Shown here: positions 29,833-64,000 of the stretch, piece by piece | Position numbering within the stretch: the stretch's first letter is position 1 | How the letters are laid out: each line of letters starts with the position of its first letter | Assembly (NCBI GenBank): GCA_046543005.1 | Contig: JBKHAG010000001.1 | Coordinates: 1,632 to 65,631, forward strand | Length of the DNA: 64,000 nt | Direction: 5' to 3' | DNA from: Candidatus Woesearchaeota archaeon | Lineage (GTDB): Archaea > Nanobdellota > Nanobdellia > Woesearchaeales > SKGA01 | Made by a program: the position numbers and the translations under genes | Notes under the pieces: model-generated | Databases searched by the model: none | What the model was told of the DNA's origin: nothing | What the model saw: only the letters and a program-made list of their open reading frames with translations

Positions 29833-30402
29833 TTACTCACAAGTAAAAAAAGAAGAAATTTGTGATGCAGAATACCCTCTTTTACGAAGAGTTTTATAAA
29901 TTATTTCTTGAGAATATCCTTTTTTTTGTAAATCCCAAACATAGTTTTGTAATTGTACTTTTTGCTGATGATATGCATTTTCACTGTGCTCGACTCGTTT
30001 GATAATCAAAAAAATAAAAATGATTAATAAAATAAGACCTGCTGTGACAAACCAAACCCATGTAAATGAAGAAGTTTCTTCTTGTAAAATGCGAGACTCG
30101 GGTGCAGGAGCAATTATTTGAGTATTGTCTTCTATATCAAATACGTATTGTTGATATTCTTTTTTGAGTTCCTCAGATGTTGGTTGAGAATAATCTTCTA
30201 AAGAAACACCTGAATCGTTAACTAAAGGTGTTGAATCAAATTCATTAATGCAAGAAAGTGTTAAAAATTCCTGTACGCGAGGATCGTTTGTTGTAGATAC
30301 ATCTGCACAAGAAATGCAAGTAACTATAAAAGAACTGTTAGCCACTAATAAGATACATAAAATAAAAAATACTATTGGTTTTATACATTGTTTCTTACGC
30401 AT
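29833..30402 (-). CDS. Type I membrane protein (signal peptide + C-terminal TM) with cytoplasmic KKGY...ISSF tail; start corrected to internal ATG overlapping the giant-gene stop
   Basis: MRKKQCIKPIVFFILCILLVANSS... ; TM WVWFVTAGLILLIIFIFLII; tail LQKKGYSQEIIYKTLRKRGYSASQISSFF resembles the C-terminus of the 1073-aa giant protein. Confidence 0.45.
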   Translation of the reverse strand: MRKKQCIKPIVFFILCILLVANSSFIVTCISCADVSTTNDPRVQEFLTLSCINEFDSTPLVNDSGVSLEDYSQPTSEELKKEYQQYVFDIEDNTQIIAPAPESRILQEETSSFTWVWFVTAGLILLIIFIFLIIKRVEHSENAYHQQKVQLQNYVWDLQKKGYSQEIIYKTLRKRGYSASQISSFFTCE

Positions 30403-33400
30403 AAAACAAGCCTCCAGAGTATGAACAAACATCAACATCATTATCTTGCATATACTTTTGAGCATTTTGCCAATTAGTTGAACCATATTCAAAATGCCAT
30501 CTTTCGCCTTTAAAACAAAGCCAACCTAAAGGACATAAAAAATCTTCTTCAAATATTCGATTACCTTCTTCATTTTTTATGACTACATCTATTGCAGCGC
30601 CCTGCAAATGAGTGCAACCATCATTAAGGGTTTCAGGCGTTCCAGGATTACATGTAGGAACTTTCATTTTTCCAGTTTCTTCATCAATATCTTTTGAATT
30701 CATATCATATAACCATTTTTGGATATCATACGTTCTATGTGCTTGATTTATGTACATGGTGTAATTTGCTTCTTTAAGTTTTTTATCAAGCTCAACTAAT
30801 TGGTTTACGAGTTGAGGAATTGCTGCACAAATTCTACGTTTTTTATTTGGATCGTTTGTAAAATATGCTTCTTCACAAGTGATGCGTTCAAACTCAGGAA
30901 ATTCTATTGCATTAATACCTGTTACTGTTTCGTATTCTCCACCACATAAATCGTTTTGTAAAAAGGAATCTAATAAAACTGTCGCGTCGTGGCGCATTTG
31001 CATTGTTGAGGCGATAGTCTCTCCTTCTACTGCAAATACTGCATAGGAATATGTTTTACCATCGCAGGCAGTTACCAAACCTGCCTGAGTTGCAATATTA
31101 TGAGGATATGATTCTGATGCACTCATAAGACCTGTTTTTCCTATTGCAGTATCTTGAGTAAAACCTGAACTAGGCATGTCTGTAAAAAAAGGATATTCTA
31201 AATCATTATACATAGATAACATATCTATTGTTTTTTGTTGCGCTTGTTTTACGTGCGCATCGTATGCTTGTTGAGAAAGGCCTAAAGACTGTTTTACCTT
31301 TGAAGCCATAGATGAAGGTAATGTTAATTTTTTATTATATAATTGAGAATAAAATAAGGTAAAATCATCTGCAGTACTTGTTAAACTTGAACGATGATTT
31401 TTGTAAGCTTTAGCAGGGGAAATAGATGAAGAGGATACGCTTTGCCACGCAGTATATGTACTATCTTGTAAATTATTGTTTTCTAAAAAAGAATCTAAAG
31501 CAGAAAAAGCAGGAAGGGAAAAATCGTTTTGAGAAAGCATTGATTCAATATGCTCTAAAACGAGTGTTGTTTGTTTGTTATCGCTTACTTCAAGCATAGG
31601 TTGCACGTGAGTATCTAATTCAGGCCATTGATTTGCAGGCGTTAGTGCGTAAGCAAGGGACGCTAACTTTATTTTAAAGGCACTCATTGTATCGACAACT
31701 TTTTTAGAATTAACTGAAATAAAGGGTTCAGATACAAAAAGCATATCATCATTTGTAGTTGTTAAACTCACCGCTAAAAGACCATCTTCTTGGGAAAAAG
31801 CGTTAGCCAAATCATCTAAATCTTCTTTAAGGTAAGAAAATGCTTTTGTTTGAGAAAGTTGTGTTGAAGAATCCCCTTGAGCTACTTGTTCAATAGTTGG
31901 TGAAAAAGAACTAATTAAGTCCGTGTATTGTTGTTGGACAGTTCGTAAATAGGAACCAACATATACAAAACGTTCTGCGGCGCAGGATTGAGCAGGTTGT
32001 GCGAATGTTTTTTGAGGCCCATAAGGGGTGCTTGCAGTAAATGATTTAAATTGTATTTGTTGACTTTTTTGAGGATAATGAAGGTTATCATAAATATCAA
32101 TTTCTGAAGAAACAACAGAATACGTATGCGTATAATTTATATCTTCCACCATAGAATCTTGTGGAGCCCACAAATACGTGTATATAATAGAACCGTCATC
32201 TTGTATTTTTTTAAAAAGAGTATTTTTTTGATCATAAGGGTCTGCAAAATTTTCTCGTTCTTTTGCTCCTTGTAAAGGAATACGTCGGTGAGCAAGAGAA
32301 GAAGGTATTGATGCTAAGGAATCTTCATTCGCAGAATCATCTAACATACTTTTTTTGTATGTTTGATATTTTTCTTCTGAAGAATATAAATCTAAAACGA
32401 AAGCAAAAGGTTTATTTTCATCTTGAGTTATATTCCAAGAAATTAAAAGAGGAGTGCTATCTGTTGCGCATGCTTGTTGTTGTATTTTGGGCACAGTAGG
32501 TTCATAGTCTATTTGAGACGCAAGTTCAACACCAAAACGCAATTTTTTTTGTGTAAAAGGAAATTCTGCTTGAAAACGGTATGCTGTTTGCGCAAGAGAG
32601 CAAGAAAATTCACCATAAGAAGTGTTAAAAGGAATCCAATGAAGAGGATATAAACGAGTTGCTTTTTCATTTGTGCGCGATTCAGATTTTGCAGTTACAT
32701 CTCCACACATATCAACACGACAAAATGTTTGAATAGTGTATGTTCTTTCAATTTCTTCTAATGTATTGTAGCACACAGGATCTATTGAATGAATAAAAAT
32801 AGGTTCACCTTCAGGGTCTGGTTCAAATTCTAATTTACAACGAGAATTTTTTGGCGAAGGTTTTGAAATAATTCCTTTACCAACATATATTCCTGTATGT
32901 CCTAAAGCAGTTTTTTTTGTCGCGCTAAATAAATCCCCTGGACGCAATAGTGCAGGATTAATAAACTGGTTATCACGTGTTGATTGTTGATTACATTTAT
33001 CAAGTCCTGTACCTAAAATTTCTTTTTGTAAGGAATTGTTATTATCATCTTTTGCAAAATAATATACGCTTTCAACAAAAGTCGCATCTTGAGTTGTACA
33101 CGTGCCAGCAGAGGCGTCTTGAGCAGAACAGCGAGTTGTTTGTCCAAAACCTGTTCCTACATATTCTTTTGCATATTCAACAATATTTGAACAACTAGTA
33201 TCTTGAATTGATAACTCGTCAATGTCTTCTAAAAAAGTTACAAGTTCACAATATGTTTGTGTTAATTTTTGTGCGTATTCACACGTTTTATCTTTTGTAA
33301 AATAAGGTTTTCTTGTCGGGTCATCTCCTTGGGCTACAAGCGCATGATCATAACTTCCTTGATATGAACAAAAAATACAATTCCAATATGTTTGTGGATC

Positions 33401-35806
33401 GTTTTGATAGGGCGCGCATTTAACATAATTTCCTGCAGAAAGTGGTTGAGGAGTTTTAGTTAGTACTTCTTTTACTGCACCGCTATCGACTTGCGCAGTA
33501 CATCTAAACTGGTCAAGATCTGAGCGAACATATTCTTGTAAACTCGGTGTTGGTCCTTGCTCACAAATACTACTTTGCCAGCCACAACCAGTTAATGAAC
33601 TTTGTTGTGTGCTTAAAACACAACTATTTTGTAATCCCATGCTTGATTCATGTATTGCATGCGTAAGTAATAATGCAGGGTCTGCATCAAATTCTTTTGC
33701 AGCTTCTAAGGCGATTTCTAAATATGTTTTACCATCAGAATTCCAAGCAATTTCATATAATTGTTTTTGATAAGTTGTAGATAATTCTTCAGTTCCAGAA
33801 CATGAAAAAACAGGTCCTGTCGCATGAGAAACGTCTTTGAGATCATCTTGAGTATATGCTTTGTAAAGAGAAGGTTTAACATTTTTTACATCAACAAATG
33901 AAGGTAAAAAAGAATTTGTCATGAATTGTAAAGAATCAGATGATTGTTCTGTTGCAAAATCTTTATCAAACACCCACTTTTGTTGACCTGCATACAAGGT
34001 TGTTTTTTTATTTTCTTTGTCAAAAATAAAATATACTTGAGACTCTGCACTATCAGATAAATATAATTTAGTAGGTGAAAAAGGAAGTTGAGTAATATAT
34101 TGCATTGAATCAGTTTGTGGTTGTGCGTCTACAACTTTTGTAACAAAGGCTTGACCACTTTCAAAAAGTACCAAAGCCACTTTATCTTCAGAAGTTGGTA
34201 AAGAATAATCAATATCAAAAGTGCACACACAAGATGTTGTTTTTAATTGTTGACAAGCGAGTAATTGGTCTAAAAAATCATACACTAAAGCGTTTTCTTC
34301 CTTGTCAAGAGTTATTTTTGTTTTCAATTTATGTTTTTTATTAAACTGCGCAGTAATTTTTTTTACACAGTCTTTTGTTGGTTGCGTACATGACGTTTGC
34401 AAAGTCTGGACAAATTCATCTAGAGGGTTAAAATGAGAAAATAATAAAGAAGTAGAAGTTGAAAGCGAAGGCGTAAAATAAACAAACCCTCCTATATCAG
34501 TATCTTGTTGATTTGCGTTCTCTTCTATATTAGTAACACCGCTTTGATTATAAGAATAGCGAATAACTGCTAAGACATCTGTAAAATCAGAAGTTGCATA
34601 ATAATTGGGAATTGTGCGTTGTACTAAGCCTTGTGAAGGTGTTGATTGAATTATTTGTCCATCTCCAATATATAATGCGACTTCACTTATGGGTGTAGAT
34701 CTTTTAAAAGTGTCTGTAGAGTCTTGAATAAATAAGATATCCCCTGGTTGTGCCCTATCAAAAATATGTGTTAAACTACACGAAGGAATATCTTCATTTT
34801 GCAAACTACTCTTTTTTGAAGCTATAAAATCATCAAAATAAGTTCCACAAACAAGCGTAGTTTCTTCTTTTGTTGCAGCAACATAATATTGTGAAGGCGA
34901 ATCTCGTTGATTAAGTAAGGAAACATTTGCATGCTTTGCAACCCACCAAATCCAACCAGCGCTATCAAAACCAGGAGTTGAAGGTATTCTTGTTTGACTC
35001 ACGAATTGTTCTGCTACAACGTCATGAAAAAAACTTTTTTCTTCGTTTTTTGTTTGATCCTTAATTATTTGAGAAAAGGTATAAGGTGATTCTCCACCCG
35101 GCACATACTCAATATGTTGATCTCTTACGTGTCGCTCATAAAGTGATTGACCTACTTGAGCAAAACATTTTCCTGTTGAACACGTAATAATAGTTTCTTC
35201 TTGGATAGAATCAACATCTAGTAATTGAAGACGAAGTAAGGCATCTTGAATGCGAGGCACAGAATTTTGTGCTTGAACAGTTCGTTGTTTTAAAGGTATT
35301 TTTGGTTCTTGATCAATTGTTGCAAAAATCGTTGTGTGATTCTTTTCTTCTTTAAATTCATAGTCATACACAAACTGTAAGGAAACTGGTTGAAACTGAC
35401 CTACAAATTCTCGCACAGCTGCAGAAAGATACATTTGAAAAGATTCTTCAAAATCAGGAACACAATTTTTTGTAGGAGTTGCATAGGTGTTATATAATAG
35501 AGAACCACAAGGAGGTTTTTGTTTACTTCCCGAAACTGTATTTTGTAAAAAAATTCCGCCTTGTTCAAAAAAATCTTCTTGAGCTTTTTGAGCTGCAAAT
35601 GTCGCACCCATATCAATATAAAGATCAGCATATGTTGCCAGTTCTGATTTGTACAACATATCGTATTGTATTTCTCCAATAGGATTATCTACTTGAACAT
35701 TTGTAGCATTAGAAGACATCACTAAAAAAGTAATAAAAAGTAAAAATACTCCTACAGGCACACCTATAATAATTGCTTTTTTTGAAGACAATAATTCTTT
35801 TTTCAT
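30395..35806 (-). CDS. Giant (1803 aa) N-terminally anchored extracellular multi-domain murein-hydrolase-like protein: two NlpC/P60-like domains, SLT/lysozyme-like domain, C-terminal M15 (VanY-type D-Ala-D-Ala carboxypeptidase) domain
   Basis: NlpC/P60-like 1: GFDSAGWIWWV...PGDILFI...ISEVALYIGDGQII (cf. GFDCSGF...PGDLVFF...ISHVGIYVGNGQMI). NlpC/P60-like 2: QDASAGT...RPGDLFSA...GHTGIYVGKGIIS. SLT-like: LTHAIHESSMG...SLTGCGWQ. M15: CNPGTPETLNDGCTHLQGAAIDVV...GERWHFEYG (cf. PGTSEH..G.AIDI / E.WHF). N-terminal signal-anchor KKAIIIGVPVGVFLLFITFLVM. Confidence 0.65.
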   Translation of the reverse strand: MKKELLSSKKAIIIGVPVGVFLLFITFLVMSSNATNVQVDNPIGEIQYDMLYKSELATYADLYIDMGATFAAQKAQEDFFEQGGIFLQNTVSGSKQKPPCGSLLYNTYATPTKNCVPDFEESFQMYLSAAVREFVGQFQPVSLQFVYDYEFKEEKNHTTIFATIDQEPKIPLKQRTVQAQNSVPRIQDALLRLQLLDVDSIQEETIITCSTGKCFAQVGQSLYERHVRDQHIEYVPGGESPYTFSQIIKDQTKNEEKSFFHDVVAEQFVSQTRIPSTPGFDSAGWIWWVAKHANVSLLNQRDSPSQYYVAATKEETTLVCGTYFDDFIASKKSSLQNEDIPSCSLTHIFDRAQPGDILFIQDSTDTFKRSTPISEVALYIGDGQIIQSTPSQGLVQRTIPNYYATSDFTDVLAVIRYSYNQSGVTNIEENANQQDTDIGGFVYFTPSLSTSTSLLFSHFNPLDEFVQTLQTSCTQPTKDCVKKITAQFNKKHKLKTKITLDKEENALVYDFLDQLLACQQLKTTSCVCTFDIDYSLPTSEDKVALVLFESGQAFVTKVVDAQPQTDSMQYITQLPFSPTKLYLSDSAESQVYFIFDKENKKTTLYAGQQKWVFDKDFATEQSSDSLQFMTNSFLPSFVDVKNVKPSLYKAYTQDDLKDVSHATGPVFSCSGTEELSTTYQKQLYEIAWNSDGKTYLEIALEAAKEFDADPALLLTHAIHESSMGLQNSCVLSTQQSSLTGCGWQSSICEQGPTPSLQEYVRSDLDQFRCTAQVDSGAVKEVLTKTPQPLSAGNYVKCAPYQNDPQTYWNCIFCSYQGSYDHALVAQGDDPTRKPYFTKDKTCEYAQKLTQTYCELVTFLEDIDELSIQDTSCSNIVEYAKEYVGTGFGQTTRCSAQDASAGTCTTQDATFVESVYYFAKDDNNNSLQKEILGTGLDKCNQQSTRDNQFINPALLRPGDLFSATKKTALGHTGIYVGKGIISKPSPKNSRCKLEFEPDPEGEPIFIHSIDPVCYNTLEEIERTYTIQTFCRVDMCGDVTAKSESRTNEKATRLYPLHWIPFNTSYGEFSCSLAQTAYRFQAEFPFTQKKLRFGVELASQIDYEPTVPKIQQQACATDSTPLLISWNITQDENKPFAFVLDLYSSEEKYQTYKKSMLDDSANEDSLASIPSSLAHRRIPLQGAKERENFADPYDQKNTLFKKIQDDGSIIYTYLWAPQDSMVEDINYTHTYSVVSSEIDIYDNLHYPQKSQQIQFKSFTASTPYGPQKTFAQPAQSCAAERFVYVGSYLRTVQQQYTDLISSFSPTIEQVAQGDSSTQLSQTKAFSYLKEDLDDLANAFSQEDGLLAVSLTTTNDDMLFVSEPFISVNSKKVVDTMSAFKIKLASLAYALTPANQWPELDTHVQPMLEVSDNKQTTLVLEHIESMLSQNDFSLPAFSALDSFLENNNLQDSTYTAWQSVSSSSISPAKAYKNHRSSLTSTADDFTLFYSQLYNKKLTLPSSMASKVKQSLGLSQQAYDAHVKQAQQKTIDMLSMYNDLEYPFFTDMPSSGFTQDTAIGKTGLMSASESYPHNIATQAGLVTACDGKTYSYAVFAVEGETIASTMQMRHDATVLLDSFLQNDLCGGEYETVTGINAIEFPEFERITCEEAYFTNDPNKKRRICAAIPQLVNQLVELDKKLKEANYTMYINQAHRTYDIQKWLYDMNSKDIDEETGKMKVPTCNPGTPETLNDGCTHLQGAAIDVVIKNEEGNRIFEEDFLCPLGWLCFKGERWHFEYGSTNWQNAQKYMQDNDVDVCSYSGGLFYA

Positions 35807-36450
35807 GAGAGTGCCCCCTGTTTAGCATATGCTTGATCAGTAAATAATGATTGTAAACGAACACCTTCACTAAAACCTATTTTTGCATAACCTATAGATA
35901 CAACAATTTCGTACGTTTGGGGTGTTTCTGCTAATTGATTAAAATATGCAGGAATTTGTAAATGATAGGTTCCAAAAAAACCAGAAGAGTCGCTTGTTCG
36001 TGTATCACCATAGTTATAATGAGTCAAATCTAAAGGAACAATCTCTTTGTAAACCACACCATCTTTAAAGACACTTGCAATAAGTGTTTGTCCTGCATCT
36101 CGAGATAAAAACACTTTTGCTGCTTGTTGCAAAGAAGATTTTATTTTATTTTGCAATTGAGTATCTTTTATCGTTGTTGAAAATTCTAAAGCAAAATACA
36201 TATTAAGCCATTCATAGACAGGTTTTGTTGTTTCATCTATTTGTAAAGGAGTTTGCACGAAAGTTCTTAGTTGTTGTAAATTGTTACTCGCGTCCCGAGA
36301 TACTGTTAGGGTATCTTCACTTTTTGAAAGATTCGAATTGGTAATAAATAAAATCAATAATAAAGAGCCCACGATTAAAAGAGCTGCTAAAATAAAATCA
36401 GTAGCAAATAAAATTTGGAGTCCTTTTTTATTGAATCTTTTTTTATTCAT
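35803..36450 (-). CDS. Pilin-like protein with archaeal class III (type IV prepilin-like) signal peptide, 215 aa
   Basis: MNKKRFNKKG|LQILFATDFILAALLIVGSLLLILFI; 4-nt overlap with the downstream giant gene. Confidence 0.55.
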   Translation of the reverse strand: MNKKRFNKKGLQILFATDFILAALLIVGSLLLILFITNSNLSKSEDTLTVSRDASNNLQQLRTFVQTPLQIDETTKPVYEWLNMYFALEFSTTIKDTQLQNKIKSSLQQAAKVFLSRDAGQTLIASVFKDGVVYKEIVPLDLTHYNYGDTRTSDSSGFFGTYHLQIPAYFNQLAETPQTYEIVVSIGYAKIGFSEGVRLQSLFTDQAYAKQGALS

Positions 36451-36943
36451 GAAAGGCCACCTCCAAAAAAGCTGGAGAAAAATGAGATCCGTTATAGACT
36501 AAACAATATCTTTTGTAAATATTTTGTGAAGCTCCACCACCTAAGTGGAGTCGCTTATTTTCCATGTCCGAAGAAGACTTTAAATGATTTAAAGTAACTG
36601 TTAAAGAAGGTTGAGGCTCTGATGCAAAACAAGCATCAAGACTTGATTGATTAAATGAAGCATCATTTATAATATTTGGTTGAGGTTTTTGAGTCCCCGG
36701 ATCTGTATATGTAAAACAAGTCGAACTTATTCGTGCAAGGGCCAAATCGCGAGGCAATTCTTCAGGCACAGGACTTAAAGAGTCAATATATCCTCCAAAA
36801 AGTAAAACAAAAAATACTAAAATAATTACTATTGGAAATAACATCAATACCCAATATAATGCAGAACTGCTTGATTCAAAACCGCTTTGTGAATCAGCAG
36901 ATCCTTTTTTTGAACGCAATAATGTGCTTAAGCGACTATTCAT
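36443..36943 (-). CDS. Pilin-like/N-terminally anchored secreted protein, 166 aa
   Basis: LLRSKKG|SADSQ... followed by hydrophobic stretch WVLMLFPIVIILVFFVLLFGG; overlaps neighbours. Confidence 0.45.
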   Translation of the reverse strand: MNSRLSTLLRSKKGSADSQSGFESSSSALYWVLMLFPIVIILVFFVLLFGGYIDSLSPVPEELPRDLALARISSTCFTYTDPGTQKPQPNIINDASFNQSSLDACFASEPQPSLTVTLNHLKSSSDMENKRLHLGGGASQNIYKRYCLVYNGSHFSPAFLEVAFHE

Positions 36944-37908
36944 GCAACCACCTCTTCAAGGGCATGCACAACTCGTTTAGCAAATACTTGTTTAAATCCT
37001 TTTAACTCGTTAGTTGATTCTAAAAGCTTTGAAGAAAGTAAAGAGTTTTGAGAATTTGCAAAAGCAATTTCTATTGTTGGTTGCGTAGTTGCAGAAGATA
37101 ATTTTTGGGGAACGCGCAATACAACAATACGAGGTTCTAAATATGTAATTAAAGATTTTGCATACTGATGAGATAATTCTTTTTCATGTAAACTATAAAA
37201 TAATTGGGTTTTGTATGCTAAATCAGCATCTTTATCCATAAAGGAAAGTCGCAATACTACTGTTTTACTTGCGTCTGGTTGGTTAAAACCATCTTGTTGG
37301 AGTTGCGCAGTTATTGTTCTTGATAATTCATCAAGACTTGGTTGCATCAAAGGATTATTTTTTGCATCAACAACGACAGTTACATGTAAATCTTTTTTTT
37401 GATGATTTACTTTTTCATTAGCTAACATGTCTTGAACAAAAGAATAGTCAAAAGAATCATTTTTTAAAATAAGCGAAGAAGATGTTTTTAAAAATGAAAA
37501 AGATCGAGCGTGCAAATAAGCCGCAGGTTTTACCGTTATTAATGTTGATGCCCAAAATGATTTTGTGTATATTGAATATAAATCTTGGAGTTGTTCTAAA
37601 CTTTCATATGAAGCGTTAGTTGCGTCATCCTTATTAAGATCAAACGAAGATATTTTTATCTTATTTGTACTAACCGAAACAAAAGAATTTTGCGAAGGTG
37701 AAGAGTAAGAAACTTGAGTTACATAAGGAACTGCGTGTAAGGCGTCAACCAAGTAGGCGGTGTCTTTCATTAAAAATTGCTGTTGGATTTCATCAGGGTT
37801 TAAGACGGCAGAGACAATACTAAATAGAATAATTAAAATCATTGCAACTAATACAATGCTTAATAATTGTGACTGTGTTAAACCTAATGCACCTCTTTTT
37901 GATTTCAT
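36940..37908 (-). CDS. Pilin-like protein with class III signal peptide, 322 aa
   Basis: MKSKRG|ALGLTQSQLLSIVLVAMILIILF. Confidence 0.5.
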   Translation of the reverse strand: MKSKRGALGLTQSQLLSIVLVAMILIILFSIVSAVLNPDEIQQQFLMKDTAYLVDALHAVPYVTQVSYSSPSQNSFVSVSTNKIKISSFDLNKDDATNASYESLEQLQDLYSIYTKSFWASTLITVKPAAYLHARSFSFLKTSSSLILKNDSFDYSFVQDMLANEKVNHQKKDLHVTVVVDAKNNPLMQPSLDELSRTITAQLQQDGFNQPDASKTVVLRLSFMDKDADLAYKTQLFYSLHEKELSHQYAKSLITYLEPRIVVLRVPQKLSSATTQPTIEIAFANSQNSLLSSKLLESTNELKGFKQVFAKRVVHALEEVVA

Positions 37909-39699: not shown

Positions 39700-40344
39700 C
39701 TATGCAGAATCCTCTTTTGAATCTTCATCAAGATATTTAGCATCATTAATTTTTTGTATACATTCATCTTTTGGCGTGGCGCAAACAGTTTCTAAATTAT
39801 TTGGACTAAATAATGTTCCTGCGCCGTCTTTTTTAATTTTTAAAAAATCTCTTTCAAAATCAGCAGGAGTACACATTTTATCGTCACCAGATGCTCCATT
39901 AAAACAAAATAATGTTGGTGAAGGTTGCTCATCTAAAGAATCGAGCAAATAATCTTTTTCAGGTTCAGGTAAATGTAATTTCACATCCTCATTTCCTGTG
40001 TTTTTTAAAGCCAAATAATTAATAATTTCATCTCGCGCAATAGCAGAAATATTATGAACTTCCTCTTTAAACAATTTATAACCGCGTTCATCATTTGAAA
40101 CCCATACTAAGTCATCAATAACATATCGCACCGCGTAAGGGTCATCTTTACTGTCGCACGGACAAGGATCAATAATATTTTTTAAGCCATCATCATCATA
40201 ATCTGATTGTTCTAAATATTCCTTAATAGTTTCGCCTCCTTTATCAGTTGCGTCTCCGACCAGAAATATCATTGCTAAAATAATAACGATTATAACTATT
40301 AATGAGCCCACTAAAGATAATGTACTTAATCCTTTTTTATTCAT
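39700..40344 (-). CDS. Pilin-like protein with class III signal peptide (start corrected), ~214 aa
   Basis: Internal start MNKKG|LSTLSLVGSLIVIIVIILAMIFLVG (ATG 40342-40344); ORF-track 22-codon N-extension unlikely. Confidence 0.5.
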   Translation of the reverse strand: MNKKGLSTLSLVGSLIVIIVIILAMIFLVGDATDKGGETIKEYLEQSDYDDDGLKNIIDPCPCDSKDDPYAVRYVIDDLVWVSNDERGYKLFKEEVHNISAIARDEIINYLALKNTGNEDVKLHLPEPEKDYLLDSLDEQPSPTLFCFNGASGDDKMCTPADFERDFLKIKKDGAGTLFSPNNLETVCATPKDECIQKINDAKYLDEDSKEDSA

Positions 40345-40611: not shown

Positions 40612-40797
40612 CTAACGTTTTGCTCCTGAAAACAAACTACCTAACGTTTCTAAAAGAGAACCTCCTTTATCGGCTTGTTTTGTCATAAAAATAATAACGA
40701 GTAATAAACTAATAACTGCTACAGCCATTATAATAATTGTTGTCATAGAGATTTCTCCTTTCTTAAAAGGTATATGTTGTATCATCTTGTAAAACAT
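40612..40797 (-). CDS. Very small pilin-like protein, 61 aa (candidate major filament subunit)
   Basis: HIPFKKG|EISMTTIIIMAVAVISLLLVIIF then short polar tail; size typical of major pilins of Flp/archaeal type. Confidence 0.45.
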   Translation of the reverse strand: MFYKMIQHIPFKKGEISMTTIIIMAVAVISLLLVIIFMTKQADKGGSLLETLGSLFSGAKR

Positions 40798-55534: not shown

Positions 55535-58500
55535 TCATTGCTCTTCCCAACCAGAACCAGTACACTCAAAACCATCAACAGTCGCGTCATTATTTAAACA
55601 AAGAGAACTAGTAAAAACATCGCGACAATCAGAAAAATCTTCAAAACAAGGATAAATAATTCCATCTAAACTTAGCAAACGATTATCTGAAACAATATCA
55701 CCAGAAGCCACAAGATCACCAGCAATACACGTCCAATCTCTACCATTATTTTTATACAAATCTGATTGTGAAAAATAATCATCTTCATCATCACAACAGC
55801 GATCTATGTTATAATCATCATAAGGCTGCAAAGAATTACCAAACCAATTAGGAGTTATATTTTCAAATTCAGCAAGAAAAGACGTATCAGCCCACGTATC
55901 ATCACCAAATGTTTGTAAAAGTGCAGTAGCACACGTACAACCTATTGCTGTTGTTTGAGATTCATAACTATTCCCCTCCTCATCGCAACCAGCGCTATTA
56001 TCATTTGTTGCTCGACAGACAAAATAGTCGTTATTATCAGAAAAAAATAATTCTGCAGAAATGCCTTGACATTTTTCATCAGCATTTAAAGACATCTTGC
56101 ATTGAGTAACATCATGATACGAACACTGACCAGAAGTTTCATCACAAGTTGCATAACATGAAAAGACCTCAGATGTAGTGACAGGATCAATTTGTAAACC
56201 TTGTGAATTCCAACCAATATCAACACCTTGCTCACTTCCACACAACCCTTCATCTAATAAGTCAATATACTCATCATCAACTTCTAAACTTCTATCTTTT
56301 TCAAAAGAGTTTTGCGAAGAATAATTATAACACATTACATTATGTTCATCAATAGATTCTTTTAAAACAAAATTTTCTCCACAAGAACTTCCCTGTATTT
56401 TTTGACTTTGTGAAAATCCAGGTCCTTGACAGCGAGCAAATTGTTGACCATCCAAATCCAAATTTTCATATTGTTCTTCAAAATCATTAAAGTCATTACA
56501 AACTTGTAAAGATTCTCTTGTTATTGTTACATCTCCAGAACAAAAAGCACCTCTTGAGCCGCTACATTCTTGAGAAATTGCAAGTGAAAGAATATCATTA
56601 AATGAGTTATCAGTAGAGGAAATTTCATAATCATCATACGTTTCTAAACTCGAAGAACCATCATTTGATTCTACCAATAAATGAGAAAAATAATCCCAGT
56701 CTTCATAGTCATTTGGTGCACAAGTGATAAAATCATCACCATGAATTGAAAAACACTTTTGATTGTTTGAATAAAATTTTCCACCTTCTAAAAGGGAAGG
56801 GAAACTATTAGGATCACAACAGACGTGAGGGGATTGTAATAAGTCGCTATTATCAGGATCTAAAACTGTTAGTAAAGGATAGGTATCAGTTGCATAATCT
56901 TGCACATCAAAATCATAACCACCATCATACCCGTGCGGCAAACATTGCGCGACGTACACGTCTTGAGTTAATACTTCGCTTGTAAACGTTGGCGATGTTG
57001 CTAAGTCATCATTTTCAAAAGTTGTTTGATTTTGTTGTACATAAAATTCTATCAAATGTTTTTGAGGCGAAGAATCATCAGCAGTACTAAAAAACTGTTT
57101 TGTAAATTTTCCTAAAGACAAGTTAAACGAAGAATAAAGAGAGTGATTAGCCACAAAAAAGACATCATCTGTGGAGTTTATTCTAAAGTCTTCTGTATTA
57201 TCTTTAAAGACATACGTAGAAATGTGCCCGCCTAAAAGTGTTGAAGGCTGCGAGCGCGACGCATTAACAATATACTTATCTTCAATGGAGGCAAAGGAAT
57301 TATTTACATCATCATATTCATTTAACAAATTTAAATGGGCTTCTGGCAAGTCAAAGACTAAAATAGAAACGTTTTGAAAATCAATTTGACCAAACTCATC
57401 ACGTAACATAACTAAAACATCATGCACGCCAATATCTTCAACAGTTGTTGGAATACTTGCTGATTGATTTGTTTGTTGATAAAGCGACGAGTTCATCCAT
57501 GTAGGTACTGTTTCTTGTGCGTTACTTGAACTACCAAATTCCTTTTGGTCAATTGTTCCATTATCATTAAGATTAAACACGTCAACACAATTACTTGTTG
57601 AGTCAAGCTCAATACACTTTTGTAAATTAGCTTCATCTTCTTGACAACATTGCCAATCAACAATAGTTGTATACTCTTGACGCCAACCACCATATTGAAA
57701 TTCGATATCATCAAGATCAGGGTCTATTCCAGAAGGTTCAAGCTTTATTGGTTTTCCTGCAACGAATTGGTAATCAATTGGTTTATCAAATAATACTAAT
57801 TGCGTCCCTTTTTGACGCAAATAATCAAGAACGGGCGCTCGTTGTTGCACGCCAATATTAAAATATAATGATTGATCACCTACTTGTGAAGCAGAATCTT
57901 TTATACGTAATACATTATTTGTTCCAAGAACAATTTTATCATCATCAACATATTTTTCTTGTTCATACTCAACAACAAAAGATTTTTTGTAATGCCTATT
58001 CATCGTAGTTGTCGTGTTCCAATCAGTACGTAAATCAAATTCAGGATTTCTTACAAATTCAGAAAGTAAACTTGTTGTGTAATAATAAAGGTGTTCTAAA
58101 TCATAATCAAATTTTTCAAAAAAATCCGCATAAGCAGTTGTCGTTTTTCCTTGAATAGTTATTACAAAAGGATACCTTACTTGAAAAGAAATTCCTTTAG
58201 GTTTTTGAAACGCGCTAAATACTTCAATTGCTGATTCATTAACCCGCATATTTGCCGCGTTACTTTCAAAGACACTAAAGTTTACACAAGAATTTAAATT
58301 ATTTTTAATATACGTGTCAAGTTGACGTTGCAAGGAATGATTGTTTTGTGCAGAGTCATAATAATAGGGACTGCAAACTGCAAGCGAAGAAACATTAAAC
58401 GCGTTAAGACCATCATAAGAACAAAGAGGAGCCATGTTGTTTGTTCCCATATATCCGCTTCGTTGCACGCGATCATCACTACTTCCTCGACAACCACCAT

Positions 58501-59065
58501 TATCTAAGGATAAACGAAATTTTGTCATGTAATCAATAAAATGAGTTTTTGGTGTGGGATACCACGAGTCTTGTTCTTGAGCATTACTAAGATCTATAAA
58601 ACTGTTAGTTTGAGTAAGTGAAGAATCATAATCATATACGTTAGAACAAGAAACATCTGCAAGCACACCCATACTCACATTTCTTTTTTTAGGAGTATAT
58701 GTTACATAAGAGCCCGATTCTCCTTCTTGAGATTTATATTGATGTGCTTTTTCAACGTATTCATGATACAGTATGGGATGTGTAGATGAATTAGTAAGAC
58801 CTCCTTGATAATCATAAATTACACCTCCTTGTTGTGCAAGAAGAATAATTCCTTCGTTTGCAACACGATTCACACAACTTTGTACATATGTTCTAAGAGC
58901 AGTTTGTTCAATTTGAGATTCAAGATTTTCTTCGGCGATGTTTTGAAAAGAAGATTGTTGCAAAGATTGTTGCACAAAGGAAATAAAAAGAACACTAAAT
59001 AAAAGTAATAATCCTACAACAACAAAAACAGCAACTTGACCTCTCCTCTTCATATCCTCTAGCAA
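55535..59065 (-). CDS. Giant (1176 aa) protein with class III (prepilin-like) signal peptide: putative giant minor pilin/tip adhesin
   Basis: MLEDMKRRG|QVAVFVVVGLLLLFSVLFISFV; rest acidic, Cys-rich. Confidence 0.5.
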   Translation of the reverse strand: MLEDMKRRGQVAVFVVVGLLLLFSVLFISFVQQSLQQSSFQNIAEENLESQIEQTALRTYVQSCVNRVANEGIILLAQQGGVIYDYQGGLTNSSTHPILYHEYVEKAHQYKSQEGESGSYVTYTPKKRNVSMGVLADVSCSNVYDYDSSLTQTNSFIDLSNAQEQDSWYPTPKTHFIDYMTKFRLSLDNGGCRGSSDDRVQRSGYMGTNNMAPLCSYDGLNAFNVSSLAVCSPYYYDSAQNNHSLQRQLDTYIKNNLNSCVNFSVFESNAANMRVNESAIEVFSAFQKPKGISFQVRYPFVITIQGKTTTAYADFFEKFDYDLEHLYYYTTSLLSEFVRNPEFDLRTDWNTTTTMNRHYKKSFVVEYEQEKYVDDDKIVLGTNNVLRIKDSASQVGDQSLYFNIGVQQRAPVLDYLRQKGTQLVLFDKPIDYQFVAGKPIKLEPSGIDPDLDDIEFQYGGWRQEYTTIVDWQCCQEDEANLQKCIELDSTSNCVDVFNLNDNGTIDQKEFGSSSNAQETVPTWMNSSLYQQTNQSASIPTTVEDIGVHDVLVMLRDEFGQIDFQNVSILVFDLPEAHLNLLNEYDDVNNSFASIEDKYIVNASRSQPSTLLGGHISTYVFKDNTEDFRINSTDDVFFVANHSLYSSFNLSLGKFTKQFFSTADDSSPQKHLIEFYVQQNQTTFENDDLATSPTFTSEVLTQDVYVAQCLPHGYDGGYDFDVQDYATDTYPLLTVLDPDNSDLLQSPHVCCDPNSFPSLLEGGKFYSNNQKCFSIHGDDFITCAPNDYEDWDYFSHLLVESNDGSSSLETYDDYEISSTDNSFNDILSLAISQECSGSRGAFCSGDVTITRESLQVCNDFNDFEEQYENLDLDGQQFARCQGPGFSQSQKIQGSSCGENFVLKESIDEHNVMCYNYSSQNSFEKDRSLEVDDEYIDLLDEGLCGSEQGVDIGWNSQGLQIDPVTTSEVFSCYATCDETSGQCSYHDVTQCKMSLNADEKCQGISAELFFSDNNDYFVCRATNDNSAGCDEEGNSYESQTTAIGCTCATALLQTFGDDTWADTSFLAEFENITPNWFGNSLQPYDDYNIDRCCDDEDDYFSQSDLYKNNGRDWTCIAGDLVASGDIVSDNRLLSLDGIIYPCFEDFSDCRDVFTSSLCLNNDATVDGFECTGSGWEEQ

Positions 59066-60319: not shown

Positions 60320-63300
60320 CTAAACACGCGTTTGAAGTGCACCGGTGTTAGAACTATCATTGTCTGAAGAAAAAACATCATCATCAATGTCTAAAGGAGG
60401 TACGTTAGAACAAGAGTCGTGATTTAATTGACTTGATGAAAAATTACAACTAACAGTACCATAAGGGTGCGTTGCGTTCCAAAATTCACAACTTTGATTG
60501 TTATATCTATATATGACATCATCCTCTATTTGTTCACAATATTCTCCGAGTTCAAGCACACCATTGTTTGGTGTTGAGTCAAACAAGTTTGAATAATCTT
60601 CATCTTCTTTACTAGTAAAATCAGGAAGTAACACAATATCTTTCCAGTTAAAGTCCGGCCAAAATGTCATGTATTCTCCATACACGTTTTGCGCAGCTAC
60701 AGCACCGTCATCCGGATTAGATACTCTTTCTTTAAACAAAATACTAAATTGTTGAGTGTTTTCATTTCCTGTAATAAATGGTCGGGCGATAAAATCAGAA
60801 GGCACTCCCGCGCCAATAAATGGTTCGAGCGTTTTTTTAATAGATGGAAAATTTCTATACTCTACAACGAGCTGTTTAAGATTATCTGTTGATTGTTGCA
60901 CACCTTCTTGCACTGCAATAATTTGTTTTTGTCCACGCGAACGCATTGCAAACACATCAAAGTCAGCATCGTTAATTGTTATAGGTAGAGTTGTTTGTGC
61001 ATCAAAAACTCCAGTATCGTGAAGTCCAGAAGAACTTGTAAACCACTGGTTTAATAAGTCTTTAAAGTCCTGCCATAAAGCGTTAAAAAATCCAGTCTTC
61101 GTAGCAAAAATACCGTTAAAATCATTATCGCTAGTTAGTTCTTGGGCGATAAGTAATATATTAAAGTCAGGATTATAAGATAATCGTACATCTAAACTAC
61201 TCGTAGTTTCAAAATCATCACATACTTGATAAAAGGTTTGTGGTGTTGTGGTTGATTGCTCTACAGAATTACACCATGTTGTAATATCTTGATCATCATT
61301 ATTACTTGTAAACCCTGTCAAGTCTTGACTTGCAAAAAGCAAATGTTGTTTTATTGAACTTAAAAATTCACTAGCAGTATAATCTGAAGAATGACTAAGC
61401 GCAACAAGAGAACTCACATCATCATTTTCATCATAAAGTGTTAAAGTACAAAATGTTGTGATATTTTCTGAAGTTAAATCTTCTAAATGTGATTGTTCAT
61501 GAAGATATATTTCTTCAGGAATAAAATTTTGCACATCTTCACACACTAAATCAAACGAGTAACGTTCAACCACGCCATCATCTTGTGAAGCAATTGTTAA
61601 ATTATATAATGATGAAAGCATAATAGTTGCTACAGGGTAATCTTCGACAGGAATCCACGCACCATGGTCTGAGCAAATATGTGTTCCTTTCACAACAAGA
61701 GGATCCACAGTAGTTTGTACTAAAGAATTATCTTGATTAAAAGTTTTTCCATCAAAACTTTGTTTAAGGTCGTAATCCTCATTTCCACAAAGCAAATATT
61801 CTCCATCAAAAAATAATAAGTTATCATAATTTTCTTCGTTAAGACGTTCACCTACAACTTCGTCGTCCATGACAGGATTACCATGAAAACATCCGCCCTT
61901 AGCATCAGCCCAGTATTCTCCACCTAATTGATTGCCTGCGGTTTTGAAAGGAATATAAGTATCATCTCCACAACATGCTCGACCAGTCCAGTCAAAGCTT
62001 GCTTGCGCCTCACACGCATACCAATATTCGCCAGTTTTATCAATTAACTCATTTGAAAAATCTTCATCAAACCAACCTTTGTCAGTTTCACCATCAAGAT
62101 TACTAATCCACGAACCAAAGTTTCCTGTACAATAATGCGTCGGAGTATTTGTTGTTAAATCAGAATCATCTTCACTTACAAAGAAGTTATCTACTGCAAT
62201 AGTTGCATGGCCATTTTCAGATGTTTTAAATTTAACAGCTTTTATCAAAGACATGTCAAAATTGGAAGGACAAGATTGAGGTAATTCAAATACTGCATGG
62301 TGCCAACGCATCTGTGATTGTCCATTTAGCAAACTTTTTGAAAGTTTCCCTAAAGAACAATTATTATCATTATTATCTACTAAATACACAGACGTATAAG
62401 AAGCAAAATCTTTTGTATTAAAAGCAATATCAAATTCTAAATAATCAAATGTTTCAATATTTGTTTGTTGTTCATAAATTAATTTATTTTTAGGTGAAAA
62501 AGTAAAATAAAAAATCCCATCATCATCTTTTGATTGAATTGCAACCATATCTTTTAAAACACCATCCTCAAAAGTATCAAAATTTTTCAATGTATGTAAT
62601 GTTCCTCCTTTTCCATAAAACCCTAAATTATTTTGATTCCCGCTCTCAGAGAATAAAGAAACATCTAAATTATTATTACACGTTGTATAATCAGTACAAC
62701 ATTCTGAAATTCGAGCTTGACCAGAATGACTATAACAAATAAATGCTTCAGGAAGAGTTAAATCGCCAAGAGCCAATGCTTGAAAATTTGGTTGCCAACC
62801 ACTATTTGCTAAACAACAGGTTTGGCCAACAATAGACCCGGAACAAATATATGAAGATGTTGTATCTGCTGGGATATAGTCGCCTAAAATAGAGTGACAC
62901 GTTTCTTCATCTAACTCCTCACCCTCTTCAAGAAGTGGTAAAGGCGCGCTTATATATTCAGGATCAGTAATAGAATCTTGTGCAACACAACAAACCTTAT
63001 CTCCTCCAAGAGTTTCACTTGTTTGGGCATAATCACCTGATAAACAATAATGAGAAGAATCTACTAAATGACCAGTATAAGATATTTCATCCCTTTCAAA
63101 ATCAATATCTGAACAAGAACCTTCATATGAACCAGACTCCATTAAACAATTTTCTAAATTATCTCCACAAAAAGATTTCTCTTGAAAATCAGTAGTTTCA
63201 TCGGTTTCTGCATCACTAGAATCTAATGAAGAAGTATCACAAAAAATACTATCACCATTTAATGCAACACACAATTCTCTTGTAATGTTAGCTTTACAAG

Positions 63301-64000
63301 AGCTATCATCTATATTATTAACAAAATCAGAAATAGAATTAAAATGACCTTCATCATCAGCATCTAAAACACTTTTTTTAGCTTTACAATTATATTCTTG
63401 GTCTCCTTCATAACAAACAGTTTTAAAACCTTCATCATTGCTTTCAAATGAAAATGTTGCTTGAGAATCACAATAAAAATTGGCTGAAGAATTTGTTTCA
63501 AAAAAGAAATTAACGTCATCTGCTAAAACATCTTGACAAACACCATCTTCAGCAAATAAAGGAGCTAAAGCATTTAAAGGGTTAGTACAAGGAAAGCCCT
63601 CGTTTGCTGTTGTTGAAAAAGAAAAATTTTCTCCATCTGCAATCGCAATTCCAGTTGGACGATTTGCACCAGTTGCGTTACAATAAAACCATTCTTGACC
63701 ATTTGCAATATAATCAACACCAGCAACAGAATGAATGATAAAAGAATTAGGACCTTCTTGAGCATCCCACCATCTCCAAGCAGGAGTATAGTCAGAATAA
63801 ACCAAATTATTCCATAAAGTATATTGGTATTCATCAGATAACGAAGAATCTACTAAACCATAAAAACTATCATTTGCACACAAATATTGTTGATCACCAG
63901 TAGAAGAAGAGGTTCCAACATACCCAAGATCTCCACCATTTAAACTAATTAAATTAGCATCATCACCACAACACCCATCAGAACCATCTTGAATTTCTTC
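60320..64000 (-). CDS. Giant secreted Cys-rich acidic protein, 5'-partial (open frame continues to window end; ORF-track start is an internal TTG)
   Basis: 39 in-frame sense codons upstream of TTG 63881-63883 with no stop (…GDQQYL|CANDSFYG…); >1200 aa visible; composition like other giants. Confidence 0.5.
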   Translation of the reverse strand, partial: EEIQDGSDGCCGDDANLISLNGGDLGYVGTSSSTGDQQYLCANDSFYGLVDSSLSDEYQYTLWNNLVYSDYTPAWRWWDAQEGPNSFIIHSVAGVDYIANGQEWFYCNATGANRPTGIAIADGENFSFSTTANEGFPCTNPLNALAPLFAEDGVCQDVLADDVNFFFETNSSANFYCDSQATFSFESNDEGFKTVCYEGDQEYNCKAKKSVLDADDEGHFNSISDFVNNIDDSSCKANITRELCVALNGDSIFCDTSSLDSSDAETDETTDFQEKSFCGDNLENCLMESGSYEGSCSDIDFERDEISYTGHLVDSSHYCLSGDYAQTSETLGGDKVCCVAQDSITDPEYISAPLPLLEEGEELDEETCHSILGDYIPADTTSSYICSGSIVGQTCCLANSGWQPNFQALALGDLTLPEAFICYSHSGQARISECCTDYTTCNNNLDVSLFSESGNQNNLGFYGKGGTLHTLKNFDTFEDGVLKDMVAIQSKDDDGIFYFTFSPKNKLIYEQQTNIETFDYLEFDIAFNTKDFASYTSVYLVDNNDNNCSLGKLSKSLLNGQSQMRWHHAVFELPQSCPSNFDMSLIKAVKFKTSENGHATIAVDNFFVSEDDSDLTTNTPTHYCTGNFGSWISNLDGETDKGWFDEDFSNELIDKTGEYWYACEAQASFDWTGRACCGDDTYIPFKTAGNQLGGEYWADAKGGCFHGNPVMDDEVVGERLNEENYDNLLFFDGEYLLCGNEDYDLKQSFDGKTFNQDNSLVQTTVDPLVVKGTHICSDHGAWIPVEDYPVATIMLSSLYNLTIASQDDGVVERYSFDLVCEDVQNFIPEEIYLHEQSHLEDLTSENITTFCTLTLYDENDDVSSLVALSHSSDYTASEFLSSIKQHLLFASQDLTGFTSNNDDQDITTWCNSVEQSTTTPQTFYQVCDDFETTSSLDVRLSYNPDFNILLIAQELTSDNDFNGIFATKTGFFNALWQDFKDLLNQWFTSSSGLHDTGVFDAQTTLPITINDADFDVFAMRSRGQKQIIAVQEGVQQSTDNLKQLVVEYRNFPSIKKTLEPFIGAGVPSDFIARPFITGNENTQQFSILFKERVSNPDDGAVAAQNVYGEYMTFWPDFNWKDIVLLPDFTSKEDEDYSNLFDSTPNNGVLELGEYCEQIEDDVIYRYNNQSCEFWNATHPYGTVSCNFSSSQLNHDSCSNVPPLDIDDDVFSSDNDSSNTGALQTRV

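Follow-up and report, generated by a model that had tools for sequence, protein, structure and literature searches.

A conserved cluster of pilin-like, giant cysteine-rich and murein-hydrolase genes in Woesearchaeota and Nanoarchaeota: a candidate type IV filament locus

Here we describe a block of genes for pilin-like and giant cysteine-rich proteins in a Candidatus Woesearchaeota archaeon (assembly GCA_046543005.1, contig JBKHAG010000001.1, positions 1,632 to 65,631 of the forward strand; this stretch of 64,000 nucleotides is called the window, and coordinates refer to it unless a related locus is named). The block is real, stands well above chance and is conserved across a major DPANN lineage. 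We interpret it as a cluster of type IV filament (TFF) subunits and cargo that is specific to Woesearchaeota and Nanoarchaeota and that would display giant adhesins and muralytic modular pilins against bacteria, an interpretation that we consider probable, with moderate rather than high confidence. Its parts are graded separately: in assembly of the TFF type we have good confidence, and that the system is directed at peptidoglycan-walled bacteria seems to us slightly better than an even bet. An earlier note on this DNA had proposed a novel attachment or attack apparatus, and that proposal is supported as far as sequence analysis reaches, its function being what we infer from the genes.

The N-termini of the encoded proteins provide the central evidence. 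Open reading frames (ORFs) of at least 40 aa in all six frames were screened with a FlaFind-like rule of our own, which demands [KR][GA] within the first 50 aa and, within 10 residues of it, an uncharged 17-mer with a mean Kyte-Doolittle hydropathy of at least 2.0. The rule matched 17 of 277 ORFs, 16 of which fall in the block (30.4-59.1 kb), and two further genes are borderline: 36443-36943, where KKG is followed by a 15-aa spacer, and 47290-47865, which reads KTA↓Q (an arrow marks the predicted processing site) and whose orthologues read K-A-Q. Motif carriers thus number 16 (plus the two borderline cases) among the approximately 24 block genes, against one false match among the other 253 ORFs, in good agreement with the roughly 16 class III-like signal peptides counted in the earlier note. 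Each motif-bearing block protein has one transmembrane (TM) segment, at its N-terminus. The seventeenth match (6023-6742) was rejected as an internal segment of a multi-TM protein.

The same motif recurs in relatives. Across 80 related loci it is found in 551 of 1153 genes that share the strand of c408, the signature core gene of the cluster, versus 12 of 255 genes on the opposite strand. Two features that the rule does not demand are prominent in the 527 motif-positive proteins of these loci: position -3 is K or R in 426 of them (81%), and position +1 is Q in 233 (44%). Counted from the nearest Met upstream, the leader has a median length of 5 aa, and the processing-site consensus is M(N)KK[G/A]↓Q with a hydrophobic helix of about 20 residues behind it; all five core families have KK[GA]Q directly before that helix. 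Profile-profile comparison (hhalign) found the families to be alike only over their first 40-70 residues, and c176 resembles c177 in the first ~40 aa only. Likeness confined to the N-terminus is a hallmark of type IV pilins. Judged by this position-specific, lineage-wide motif, the N-termini are not ordinary Sec peptides, and class III processing of the block proteins is very likely.

Every substantial ORF from 29833 to 64000 lies on the minus strand, in a run that begins earlier, at 28084, with two housekeeping genes. In the contig sequence beyond the window, an RNase P p30 gene precedes the last giant gene, and divergently transcribed housekeeping genes lie farther on. Because that giant starts ~1.2 kb past the window end, preceded by RNase P p30, the co-directional surface block measures ~35.3 kb, from 29833 to ~65182. 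Successive genes are spaced by -16 to +95 nt, with two wider gaps (149 and 341 nt), and overlaps of 1-16 nt occur at eight junctions; an apparent 98-nt overlap (30395-30492) vanishes if the last gene starts at an internal Met (30402). The common strand, tight spacing and overlaps bear out the earlier description of a single-strand, operon-like locus. A GAGGTG-like Shine-Dalgarno element stands before most internal genes, as expected of a polycistronic unit; in a genome of 33% GC such elements, and TATA-like ones, are weak hints only.

Cluster proteins are acidic and contain on average 2.70% Cys, compared with 1.13% for the housekeeping proteins of the same window, which is consistent with disulfide-stabilised extracellular proteins. 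N-glycosylation sequons were not commoner than composition predicts and add nothing on surface location. Scans of the block proteins against Pfam and NCBIfam returned matches to NlpC/P60, Big_13, DUF6719 and Memo only, and to no pilin, archaellin, adhesin or S-layer family.

In contigs of close relatives the gene order is preserved, although identity is only 24-32%. The order starts with RNase P p30, a giant, Memo, G1176, G1422 and G1073 (for names see Table 1), continues with proteins of ~180, 373-408, 170, 170, 85, 400-450 and 233-280 aa, and ends with distal genes for ~510-570, 304-322, 166-291 and 220 aa, followed by a large protein with a G1803-like N-terminus. A word-indexed homologue search undercounts these families (14 matches for c408, 7 for G1176 and 5 for c176). 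A pattern scan for the c408 motif QFNWIFV[LI] in one genome per GTDB species found relatives in 128 species genomes, and a c408 profile searched with HMMER against 1.84 billion representatives of 50%-identity clusters gave 1,945 matches at E<=1e-3, 883 of them at E<=1e-30. The 80 retrieved loci are nearly all labelled Woesearchaeota, Nanoarchaeota, Nanobdellota or Nanoarchaeia, and c408 was present in 83 of the 83 loci examined for gene content. The block is therefore kept in related DPANN genomes, with its gene order shared by distant Woesearchaeota and Nanoarchaeota.

Some labels deviate. 'Uncultured Methanosarcinales archaeon' is attached to three of the loci (L006, L009, L014) and to ~25 others, including a complete chromosome of 774 kb (OZ246410.1), and two other cluster-bearing genomes are labelled as Aminicenantes and Dehalococcoidales bacteria. 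These look like mis-assigned or mis-binned DPANN contigs.

The N-termini and the distribution also bear on whether this is a plain envelope or S-layer cluster, in which the giants would belong to the envelope, uncleaved signal anchors would account for the KK[GA] N-termini, and TFF machinery would play no part. Such a cluster would fit a window without a peptidase, an unlinked ATPase and the lack of any match to a known pilin model, and large proteins with a C-terminal TM segment in archaeal type IV pilus (T4P) loci have been read as S-layer-like (Makarova 2016). However, K-K-[GA]-Q before the helix and very short leaders, in ~527 proteins of many families, are needless for a plain anchor, and proteins of 42-85 aa with little beyond the helix would be pointless if they were surface proteins on a tether. 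Moreover, Pfam detected no S-layer domains in the block, and the cluster was not found in free-living archaea but only in DPANN-labelled or a few apparently mislabelled genomes. We therefore regard a plain envelope cluster as quite improbable.

The link to bacteria comes from the distal end of the block, where the giant G1803 carries four muralytic modules behind a class III-like N-terminus. The first is an NlpC/P60 domain (aa 278-410; 37.7 bits versus a Pfam cut-off of 23). A lysozyme/glucosaminidase-like module follows at ~aa 700-790 (...AIHESSMG; E 3.5e-3), then a second NlpC/P60 at ~aa 940-1010 that keeps GHTGIYVG...IHS (18.8 bits, E 1.6e-3), and finally VanY/M15 at aa 1665-1780 (20.0 bits versus a cut-off of 25, E 6e-4), with the LAS zinc motifs HLQGAAID and WHFEY read directly from the C-terminal sequence. 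One giant with murein-hydrolase domains had been claimed before, and G1803 answers to this with one module above cut-off and three sub-threshold ones.

Relatives extend this pattern. At the same distal position, proteins with KK[GAS]-plus-helix N-termini contain Peptidase_M15/VanY above cut-off in four loci (L013, L059, L078, L080), a glucosaminidase domain of 58.6 bits in L046 and sub-threshold 3D domains in L014 and L047, and in L011 the position is occupied by an NlpC and lysozyme-like combination. Muralytic modules are found at the distal position in at least 12 related loci, a lower bound, since the 10-kb flank usually ends where the hydrolase gene starts. The large proteins at the G1803 position in relatives match G1803 in their N-termini. 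Different murein hydrolase families have thus repeatedly been grafted onto one pilin-like carrier at one cluster position, and these class III-like carriers strengthen the 'attack' idea of the earlier note. Because archaea of this kind are not known to synthesise murein, the likely substrate is the wall of a bacterium, either host or prey.

Five giant proteins are encoded in the block, of 1803, 1073, 1422, 1176 and at least 1226 aa within the window, the last being 1620 aa in full (G1620; full gene at L087 3591-8453). Their isoelectric points (pI) are 4.05-4.74 and their Cys contents 1.9-5.0%; G1073, G1422 and G1620 have Sec-type signal peptides, and G1176 and G1803 a class III-like motif. Composition and N-termini thus agree with five acidic, Cys-rich giants that are secreted or membrane-anchored, one itself prepilin-like, as described earlier. 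No Pfam match was obtained for G1620, which has orthologues at the same position in L089 and L090. G1422 contains a Big_13 Ig-like domain (Pfam, 5.5e-11) and has orthologues in 21 loci at ~28% identity; G1073, with orthologues in 19 loci, is a candidate membrane anchor or envelope component. The N-terminus of G1176 is conserved in seven homologues, with orthologues in 23 loci, and the protein is a candidate modular pilin or adhesin. Searches of PDB sequences with three of the giants returned nothing, and Pfam found no DUF2341, beta-propeller or PilY1 domains in the giants, which, G1803 apart, showed Big_13 or no Pfam domain.

Placing the Memo-family gene and the last giant outside the cluster was considered and rejected, since the order giant, Memo, G1176 homologue was found in L089 (9091-9966; Memo 48% identity) and L090 (8610-9524; 35%). 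G1176 homologues in relatives that keep the Memo position share 24-30% identity. It is a possibility that Memo, a putative redox or metal enzyme, modifies the Cys-rich giants.

Five conserved pilin-like families form the core. The c408 family has the consensus KKGQiEiQFNWIFVLI with an invariant QF.WIFV motif; NCBI names the protein encoded here 'hypothetical protein ACLFNM_00240 [Candidatus Woesearchaeota archaeon]'. An AlphaFold2 (AF2) model of c408 (predicted local distance difference test, pLDDT, 79.7; predicted template-modelling score 0.76) contains a helix of 47 residues (25-71), a nine-strand sheet, an alpha/beta region and a helical bundle, and has no significant PDB neighbour. The smallest member, c85, matches the uncharacterised Pfam family DUF6719 (27.9 bits versus a cut-off of 27, E=2.2e-6), of which we found no mention in the literature searched. 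Orthologues of c85 occur in 51 of 83 loci, often as 2-3 tandem copies, and the gene has its own upstream spacer of ~95 nt with a TATA-like TTTAAATA, which is weak evidence. We consider c85 a candidate major subunit. An alternative candidate is the 42-aa tiny42: motif-positive ORFs of 47-75 aa are present in 30 related loci, usually at its position, and a TATA-like element (again weak evidence) lies ~30 nt upstream. The 42-61-aa ORFs that had been put forward as major subunits remain candidates, but c85, conserved and often duplicated, is at least as good.

Table 1. Features of the block, of the candidate motor and of the flanking region (w/o, without; arrow, predicted processing site)
Feature	Position	Strand	Remarks
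740-aa polytopic membrane protein, 5' part	1..901	-	~9 TM segments, two cytoplasmic helical regions; directly downstream of ATPase
Secretion ATPase, FlaI/TadA/PilB superfamily, 755 aa	907..3174	-	PF00437, 3.8e-14, 52.6 bits vs cut-off 24.9
Archaeal RNase P RNA	24403-24761	-	Rfam RF00373, 84.2 bits, just at gathering score
p189, block's last gene, membrane protein	29833..30402	-	2 TM segments
G1803, giant with class III-like N-terminus	30395..35806	-	SSKKA↓IIIGVPVGVFLLF; four muralytic modules
p215, pilin-like protein	35803..36450	-	FNKKG↓LQILFATDFILAALLIVG; relatives have motif-positive ~210-220-aa genes here
p166, borderline pilin-like protein	36443..36943	-	KKG, 15-aa polar spacer, then helix; orthologues in 17 loci
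p322, pilin-like protein	36940..37908	-	KSKRG↓ALGLTQSQLLSIVLVAMIL
p570, large pilin-like protein	37956..39668	-	TSKKG↓MAVLSMMLALIL; orthologues of 508-570 aa at same position
p236/214, pilin-like protein	39700..40344	-	MNKKG↓LSTLSLVGSLIVIIV; also called as 214 aa
p88, 88-aa pilin-like protein	40337..40603	-	QDKKG↓IGFSMIMYLIIGV
p61, 61-aa pilin-like protein	40612..40797	-	PFKKG↓EISMTTIIIMAVAV
p261, pilin-like protein	40782..41567	-	MDKKA↓ITVGMSTLIIIIFF; orthologues in 21 loci
tiny42, 42-aa Flp/Epd-like prepilin	41560..41688	-	TTKKA↓STTEWILSITFLLLVFLLVA
p287, pilin-like protein	41775..42638	-	CSKKA↓NIGVTKLVIIII; paralogue of p261 (32% identity); orthologues in 14 loci
p425, pilin-like protein	42641..43918	-	SSRKG↓SIDMTWAIIIG; Cys-rich, 24 Cys
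c85, small pilin-like protein	43919..44176	-	KSKKG↓QGLSMNVIIIAAIALIVLVVL; consensus KKgQglSiNvIIIAAIAL; ~45-aa head with 6 Cys
p181	44272..44817	-	N-terminal TM segment; w/o K[GA] motif; w/o orthologues in related loci
c176, core pilin-like protein	44905..45435	-	ARKG↓QSEIMGLIVIVVIL; consensus KKaQmEImGLA; orthologues in 70/83 loci
c177, core pilin-like protein	45432..45965	-	SSKKG↓QMQSLESIFAVIVILF; consensus KKaQIQMgEtIaV; orthologues in 68/83 loci
c408, signature core pilin-like protein, 408 aa	46061..47287	-	SSKKG↓QISIQFNWIFVLIVG
c191, core pilin-like protein	47290..47865	-	Consensus N-terminus M..kKaQiigQvFIYI; this copy AKTA↓Q; orthologues in 57/83 loci
G1073, giant	47865..51086	-	Sec signal peptide, Ig-like ectodomain, one TM at aa 815-833, ~240-aa cytoplasmic tail
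G1422, giant secreted protein	51117..55385	-	Sec signal peptide, 71 Cys (5%), pI 4.05
G1176, giant prepilin-like protein	55535..59053	-	1172 aa from MKRRG↓QVAVFVVVGLLLLF; 38 Cys, pI 4.1
Memo-family protein, 286 aa	59395..60255	-	PF01875, 6.7e-30; lies between two giants
G1620, giant secreted Cys-rich acidic protein	60320..64000	-	Sec-type signal peptide MITKKLSILFVFAILLLVISSVSVSA↓DD; gene continues ~1182 nt past window

Some variable genes deserve comment. The start codon of p425 adjoins the c85 stop codon, and its orthologues in L002 and L004 have SRKA/SKKG motifs. The true start of p236/214 is likely the Met at 40344, and p181 appears to be a lineage-specific insert. In p189 the class III motif is absent, and orthologues were not found in related loci. 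Both p189 and the tail of G1073 end in a short basic segment containing 'KKGY...', with no BLAST similarity between the two.

The candidate motor, 27 kb from the subunit cluster, is the ATPase encoded at 907-3174. Its best NCBIfam match is FlaI (1.6e-39, 136 bits versus an equivalog cut-off of 550), and TadA is also far below its cut-off. The 740-aa membrane protein encoded next to it (full gene at L085 2474-4696) is a candidate platform of the FlaJ/TadC type by adjacency to the ATPase and by topology. An archaellum was considered and rejected, as the window contains no archaellins FlaA/B and no FlaC-H genes; Pfam and NCBIfam gave no match to archaellin or Fla accessory families in the window, which agrees with the absence of canonical archaellum genes reported earlier.

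The ATPase has an N-terminal extension of ~300 residues without a domain match. A 2026 census of archaeal TFF systems reports that variable N-terminal domains track the TFF subsystem type, and the extension might mark a subsystem peculiar to DPANN. Encoded 3 kb from the ATPase and platform pair (6023-7978, minus strand) are three membrane proteins, 190-240 aa long and without Pfam match; each matches proteins in L023, and those of 205 and 190 aa look paralogous. Beside the pilin cluster of L023 (6468-10675) are five genes in a row for multi-TM proteins (149-201 aa, 5-6 TM segments). A connection of the 6023-7978 proteins to the filament machinery is possible.

From these genes a mechanism can be proposed. 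About 17 proteins would be made with class III signal peptides, and a leader of 5-8 residues would be cut from each by a prepilin peptidase encoded elsewhere. From their hydrophobic N-terminal helices, the ATPase and platform encoded at 1-3174 would then build a filament or a short pseudopilus. On the model of the four minor pilins in bacterial T4P and type II secretion systems (T2SS), the proteins c191, c408, c177 and c176 would form a complex that primes assembly or sits at the tip, and c85 (DUF6719) and/or the tiny ~45-aa Flp-like protein would build the shaft. Adhesins or envelope anchors on or beside this structure would be provided by the Sec-dependent G1620, G1422 and G1073 together with the giant modular pilin G1176; of these, G1620 and G1422 would be adhesins that are secreted or associated with the structure, and G1073 would be anchored in the membrane. 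As modular pilins, G1176, p570, p425 and G1803 would be displayed on the structure, and hydrolase modules on pilin-like N-termini (G1803; M15, GH73-like and 3D in relatives) would cut the wall of the bacterial partner at contact. That this amounts to a lineage-wide machine for cross-domain parasitism or predation, whose muralytic modular pilins and giant adhesins dock on and open bacterial peptidoglycan, is a tentative proposal to which we give somewhat less than an even chance.

Several results weigh against this interpretation. No pilin-like protein has a pilin or archaellin match among the hidden Markov models of Pfam and NCBIfam. The Pfam class III signal family PF04021 (Class_IIIsignal, DUF361, QXSXEXXXL) gave no match, its S+3/E+5/L+9 pattern not being conserved though Q+1 reaches 44%, and a match to TIGR04205 is weak (E=0.037); membership in any named pilin family is not established. 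Cleavage is likewise what we infer, since a prepilin peptidase was seen neither in the window nor in related loci: Peptidase_A24 is absent among the window ORFs, as the earlier note had observed, and 84 related loci of +-10 kb contain no GxGD polytopic protein. The pairing of ATPase and cluster is an assumption, the two being 27 kb apart here; in 83 related loci the +-10 kb around the cluster contained neither a TFF ATPase nor a platform protein, and subunit cluster and motor are separate loci as a rule. The 740-aa protein has no match in Pfam or NCBIfam, T2SSF/FlaJ models included, so that of the FlaI-like ATPase and FlaJ-like platform named earlier the first stands (PF00437) and the second is a candidate by architecture and adjacency. 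The AF2 model of G1176, built from 7 sequences, reaches a pLDDT of 43, and only the N-terminal helix (3-74) is moderately confident. In G1803, module 1 reads FDSAG / EVALY / IQS, the positions expected for catalytic Cys, His and His being taken by Ser, Glu and Gln, and is probably an inactive or binding module; modules 2-4, scanned as separate segments, are all under the Pfam cut-offs.

The make-up of the core could also serve other machines. A short pseudopilus or a bindosome-like assembly would act as a piston or scaffold that pushes the giants and hydrolases through the S-layer, as in a T2SS, or holds them at the surface. One small and four larger conserved pilin-like proteins beside Sec-dependent giants mirror GspG with GspH/I/J/K and their substrates, the many large proteins that combine an enzyme with a class III signal are reminiscent of bindosome substrates, and the TM segment and cytoplasmic tail of G1073 could anchor such a structure. 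Yet an archaeon with a single membrane has no outer membrane to traverse, Pfam scans of the window found no secretin-like or Bas-specific components, and tiny Flp-like and duplicated c85 subunits are typical of true filaments; we judge an assembly of this kind unlikely. The count of one major and four minor subunits would equally fit ComGC-GG of a competence-type (Com-like) pilus for DNA uptake and nucleotide scavenging, and DNA uptake by type IV pili has been proposed in the literature for ultra-small symbionts. A pilus of that type, however, leaves both the giants and the conserved muralytic modules unexplained, and neither the window nor the related loci yielded ComEC, ComEA or DprA. We give it very little credence.

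Known systems offer partial parallels to a TFF subunit and cargo cluster. Complex archaeal T4P loci with at least five minor pilins and two large adhesin-like proteins have been described (Makarova 2016). Like the block, loci of the clade 1 or 'System 1' T4P (Methanococcus maripaludis Epd) and of Thermoproteales are operon-like and combine at least five class III minor pilins with Q at +1, a small head-less major pilin, and large adhesin-like and Cys-rich proteins. Unlike them, the block has ~17 pilin-like genes, five proteins of 1,073-1,803 aa and muralytic modules, lacks EppA/PibD, FleN/MinD and DUF2341/PilY, and is unlinked to its motor; its protein families are its own, without Pfam or NCBIfam pilin match, and are limited to Woesearchaeota and Nanoarchaeota. 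The platform candidate is one 740-aa gene, compared with two genes in clade 1 T4P. The tips of type IVa pili (PilY1/PilC) and of T2SS (GspH-I-J-K) share with the core the co-linear arrangement of four larger pilin-like proteins and one small subunit beside very large non-pilin proteins, but there is no similarity in sequence or detectable fold, no beta-propeller or PilY1, and the short KK[GA]↓Q leaders differ from G↓F...E5. The Sulfolobus bindosome (Bas) also has large class III-signal proteins that rely on a TFF-type ATPase and platform; here, however, the cargo would be adhesin-like giants and muralytic enzymes, not solute-binding proteins, and the likeness to Bas is weak, at the level of the ATPase superfamily only.

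In bacteria, modular pilins are known, as is a complex of four minor pilins and PilY1 at the pilus tip (Raynaud 2021). As in PilB/PilC of Streptococcus sanguinis, a pilin module with grafted functions is seen in G1176, p570, p425, G1803 and the M15, GH73-like and 3D proteins of relatives. The present proteins differ in being archaeal, in bearing peptidoglycan-hydrolase modules and in reaching 1,803 aa, the survey being bacterial and its available part listing no peptidoglycan hydrolases (Raynaud 2021). Predation on bacteria has been proposed for Woesearchaeota from large murein transglycosylases (Vigneron 2022), and peptidoglycan hydrolases of Woesearchaeota and Nanoarchaeota have been read as anti-bacterial in a study that scored only Sec and Tat signals (Strock 2025). 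G1803 is probably the same kind of large secreted muralytic DPANN protein; the available parts of both papers mention no pilins or pili, in contrast to the class III-like N-terminus and cluster context found here. Giant surface proteins together with pili recur in bacteria of the candidate phyla radiation (CPR) and in Omnitrophota, and DPANN and CPR cells attached through pili have been observed under the microscope. Vampirococcus and other CPR, Omnitrophota and the nanohaloarchaeal SPEARE likewise unite reduced genomes, giant surface proteins, type IV or Tad pili and muralytic enzymes, but they are non-homologous and belong to other lineages, whereas here giants, pilin-like genes and a hydrolase share one syntenic block.

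A full-text literature search found no description of the cluster; its coverage was incomplete and an earlier description is possible. The available part of the 2026 census does not mention the cluster. The DUF6719 family and the murein transglycosylases of Woesearchaeota are already known elements, and what may be new in itself is the presence of murein hydrolases on pilin-like N-termini inside a giant-adhesin cluster. Nanoarchaeal TFF ATPases had no identifiable cognate pilins in the 2016 census (Makarova 2016), and the cluster is a candidate for these missing pilins.

The GC content is uniform along the window (~33% throughout). Its first 29.8 kb hold archaeal housekeeping genes, among them Trp/Tyr-, Asp- and Asp/Asn-tRNA synthetases, translin, archaeosine tRNA-guanine transglycosylase (TGT), nascent polypeptide-associated complex (NAC), Sec61beta, replication protein A (RPA) and an ABC transporter; ARAGORN found no tRNA genes in the 64 kb. 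The archaeal RNase P RNA, NAC, Sec61beta and RPA, together with the NCBI name, confirm that the DNA is from a DPANN archaeon, as previously suggested. Nothing in what was examined (uniform GC, housekeeping flanks) points to a viral or mobile origin of the block.

Three side observations concern this region. An 85-aa ORF at 24470-24727 overlaps the RNase P RNA and is spurious. A direct repeat of ~220 nt occurs in three copies of 74-90% identity (3530-3759, 16336-16541 and 24912-25131), each in an intergenic stretch directly ahead of a gene on the plus strand (Trp/Tyr-tRNA synthetase, PfkB kinase and ABC ATPase). It could serve these genes as a common promoter or leader, or else be a small element of a mobile or repetitive kind. 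On the plus strand, two genes for class II tRNA synthetases of the Asp/Asn type stand in tandem; that at 8842-10551 has the GAD insertion typical of bacterial-type aspartyl-tRNA synthetase (AspRS), and that at 10597-11892 is the shorter type without GAD. The former is possibly a bacterial AspRS acquired horizontally, beside the native enzyme.

Looking at the organisms as a whole, few uncultured archaea are as widespread as Woesearchaeota and their relatives. The genome is probably under 1 Mb, and the cluster takes up ~35 kb of it with an order kept across more than 100 species-level genomes; this cost and this conservation therefore point to a costly, selected surface machine. If the cluster is indeed the machine for parasitism or predation tentatively proposed above, these would be the first cell-wall hydrolases delivered by pilins, and a major DPANN group would have bacteria, not archaea, as its partners. 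The cluster would also carry the principle of the modular pilin over to archaea and to lytic enzymes. The cleavage motif, the five-gene core, the shaft candidates, the giant candidate adhesins and the pilin-anchored murein hydrolases offer concrete targets, through which the hosts of Woesearchaeota and their means of attachment become testable questions.

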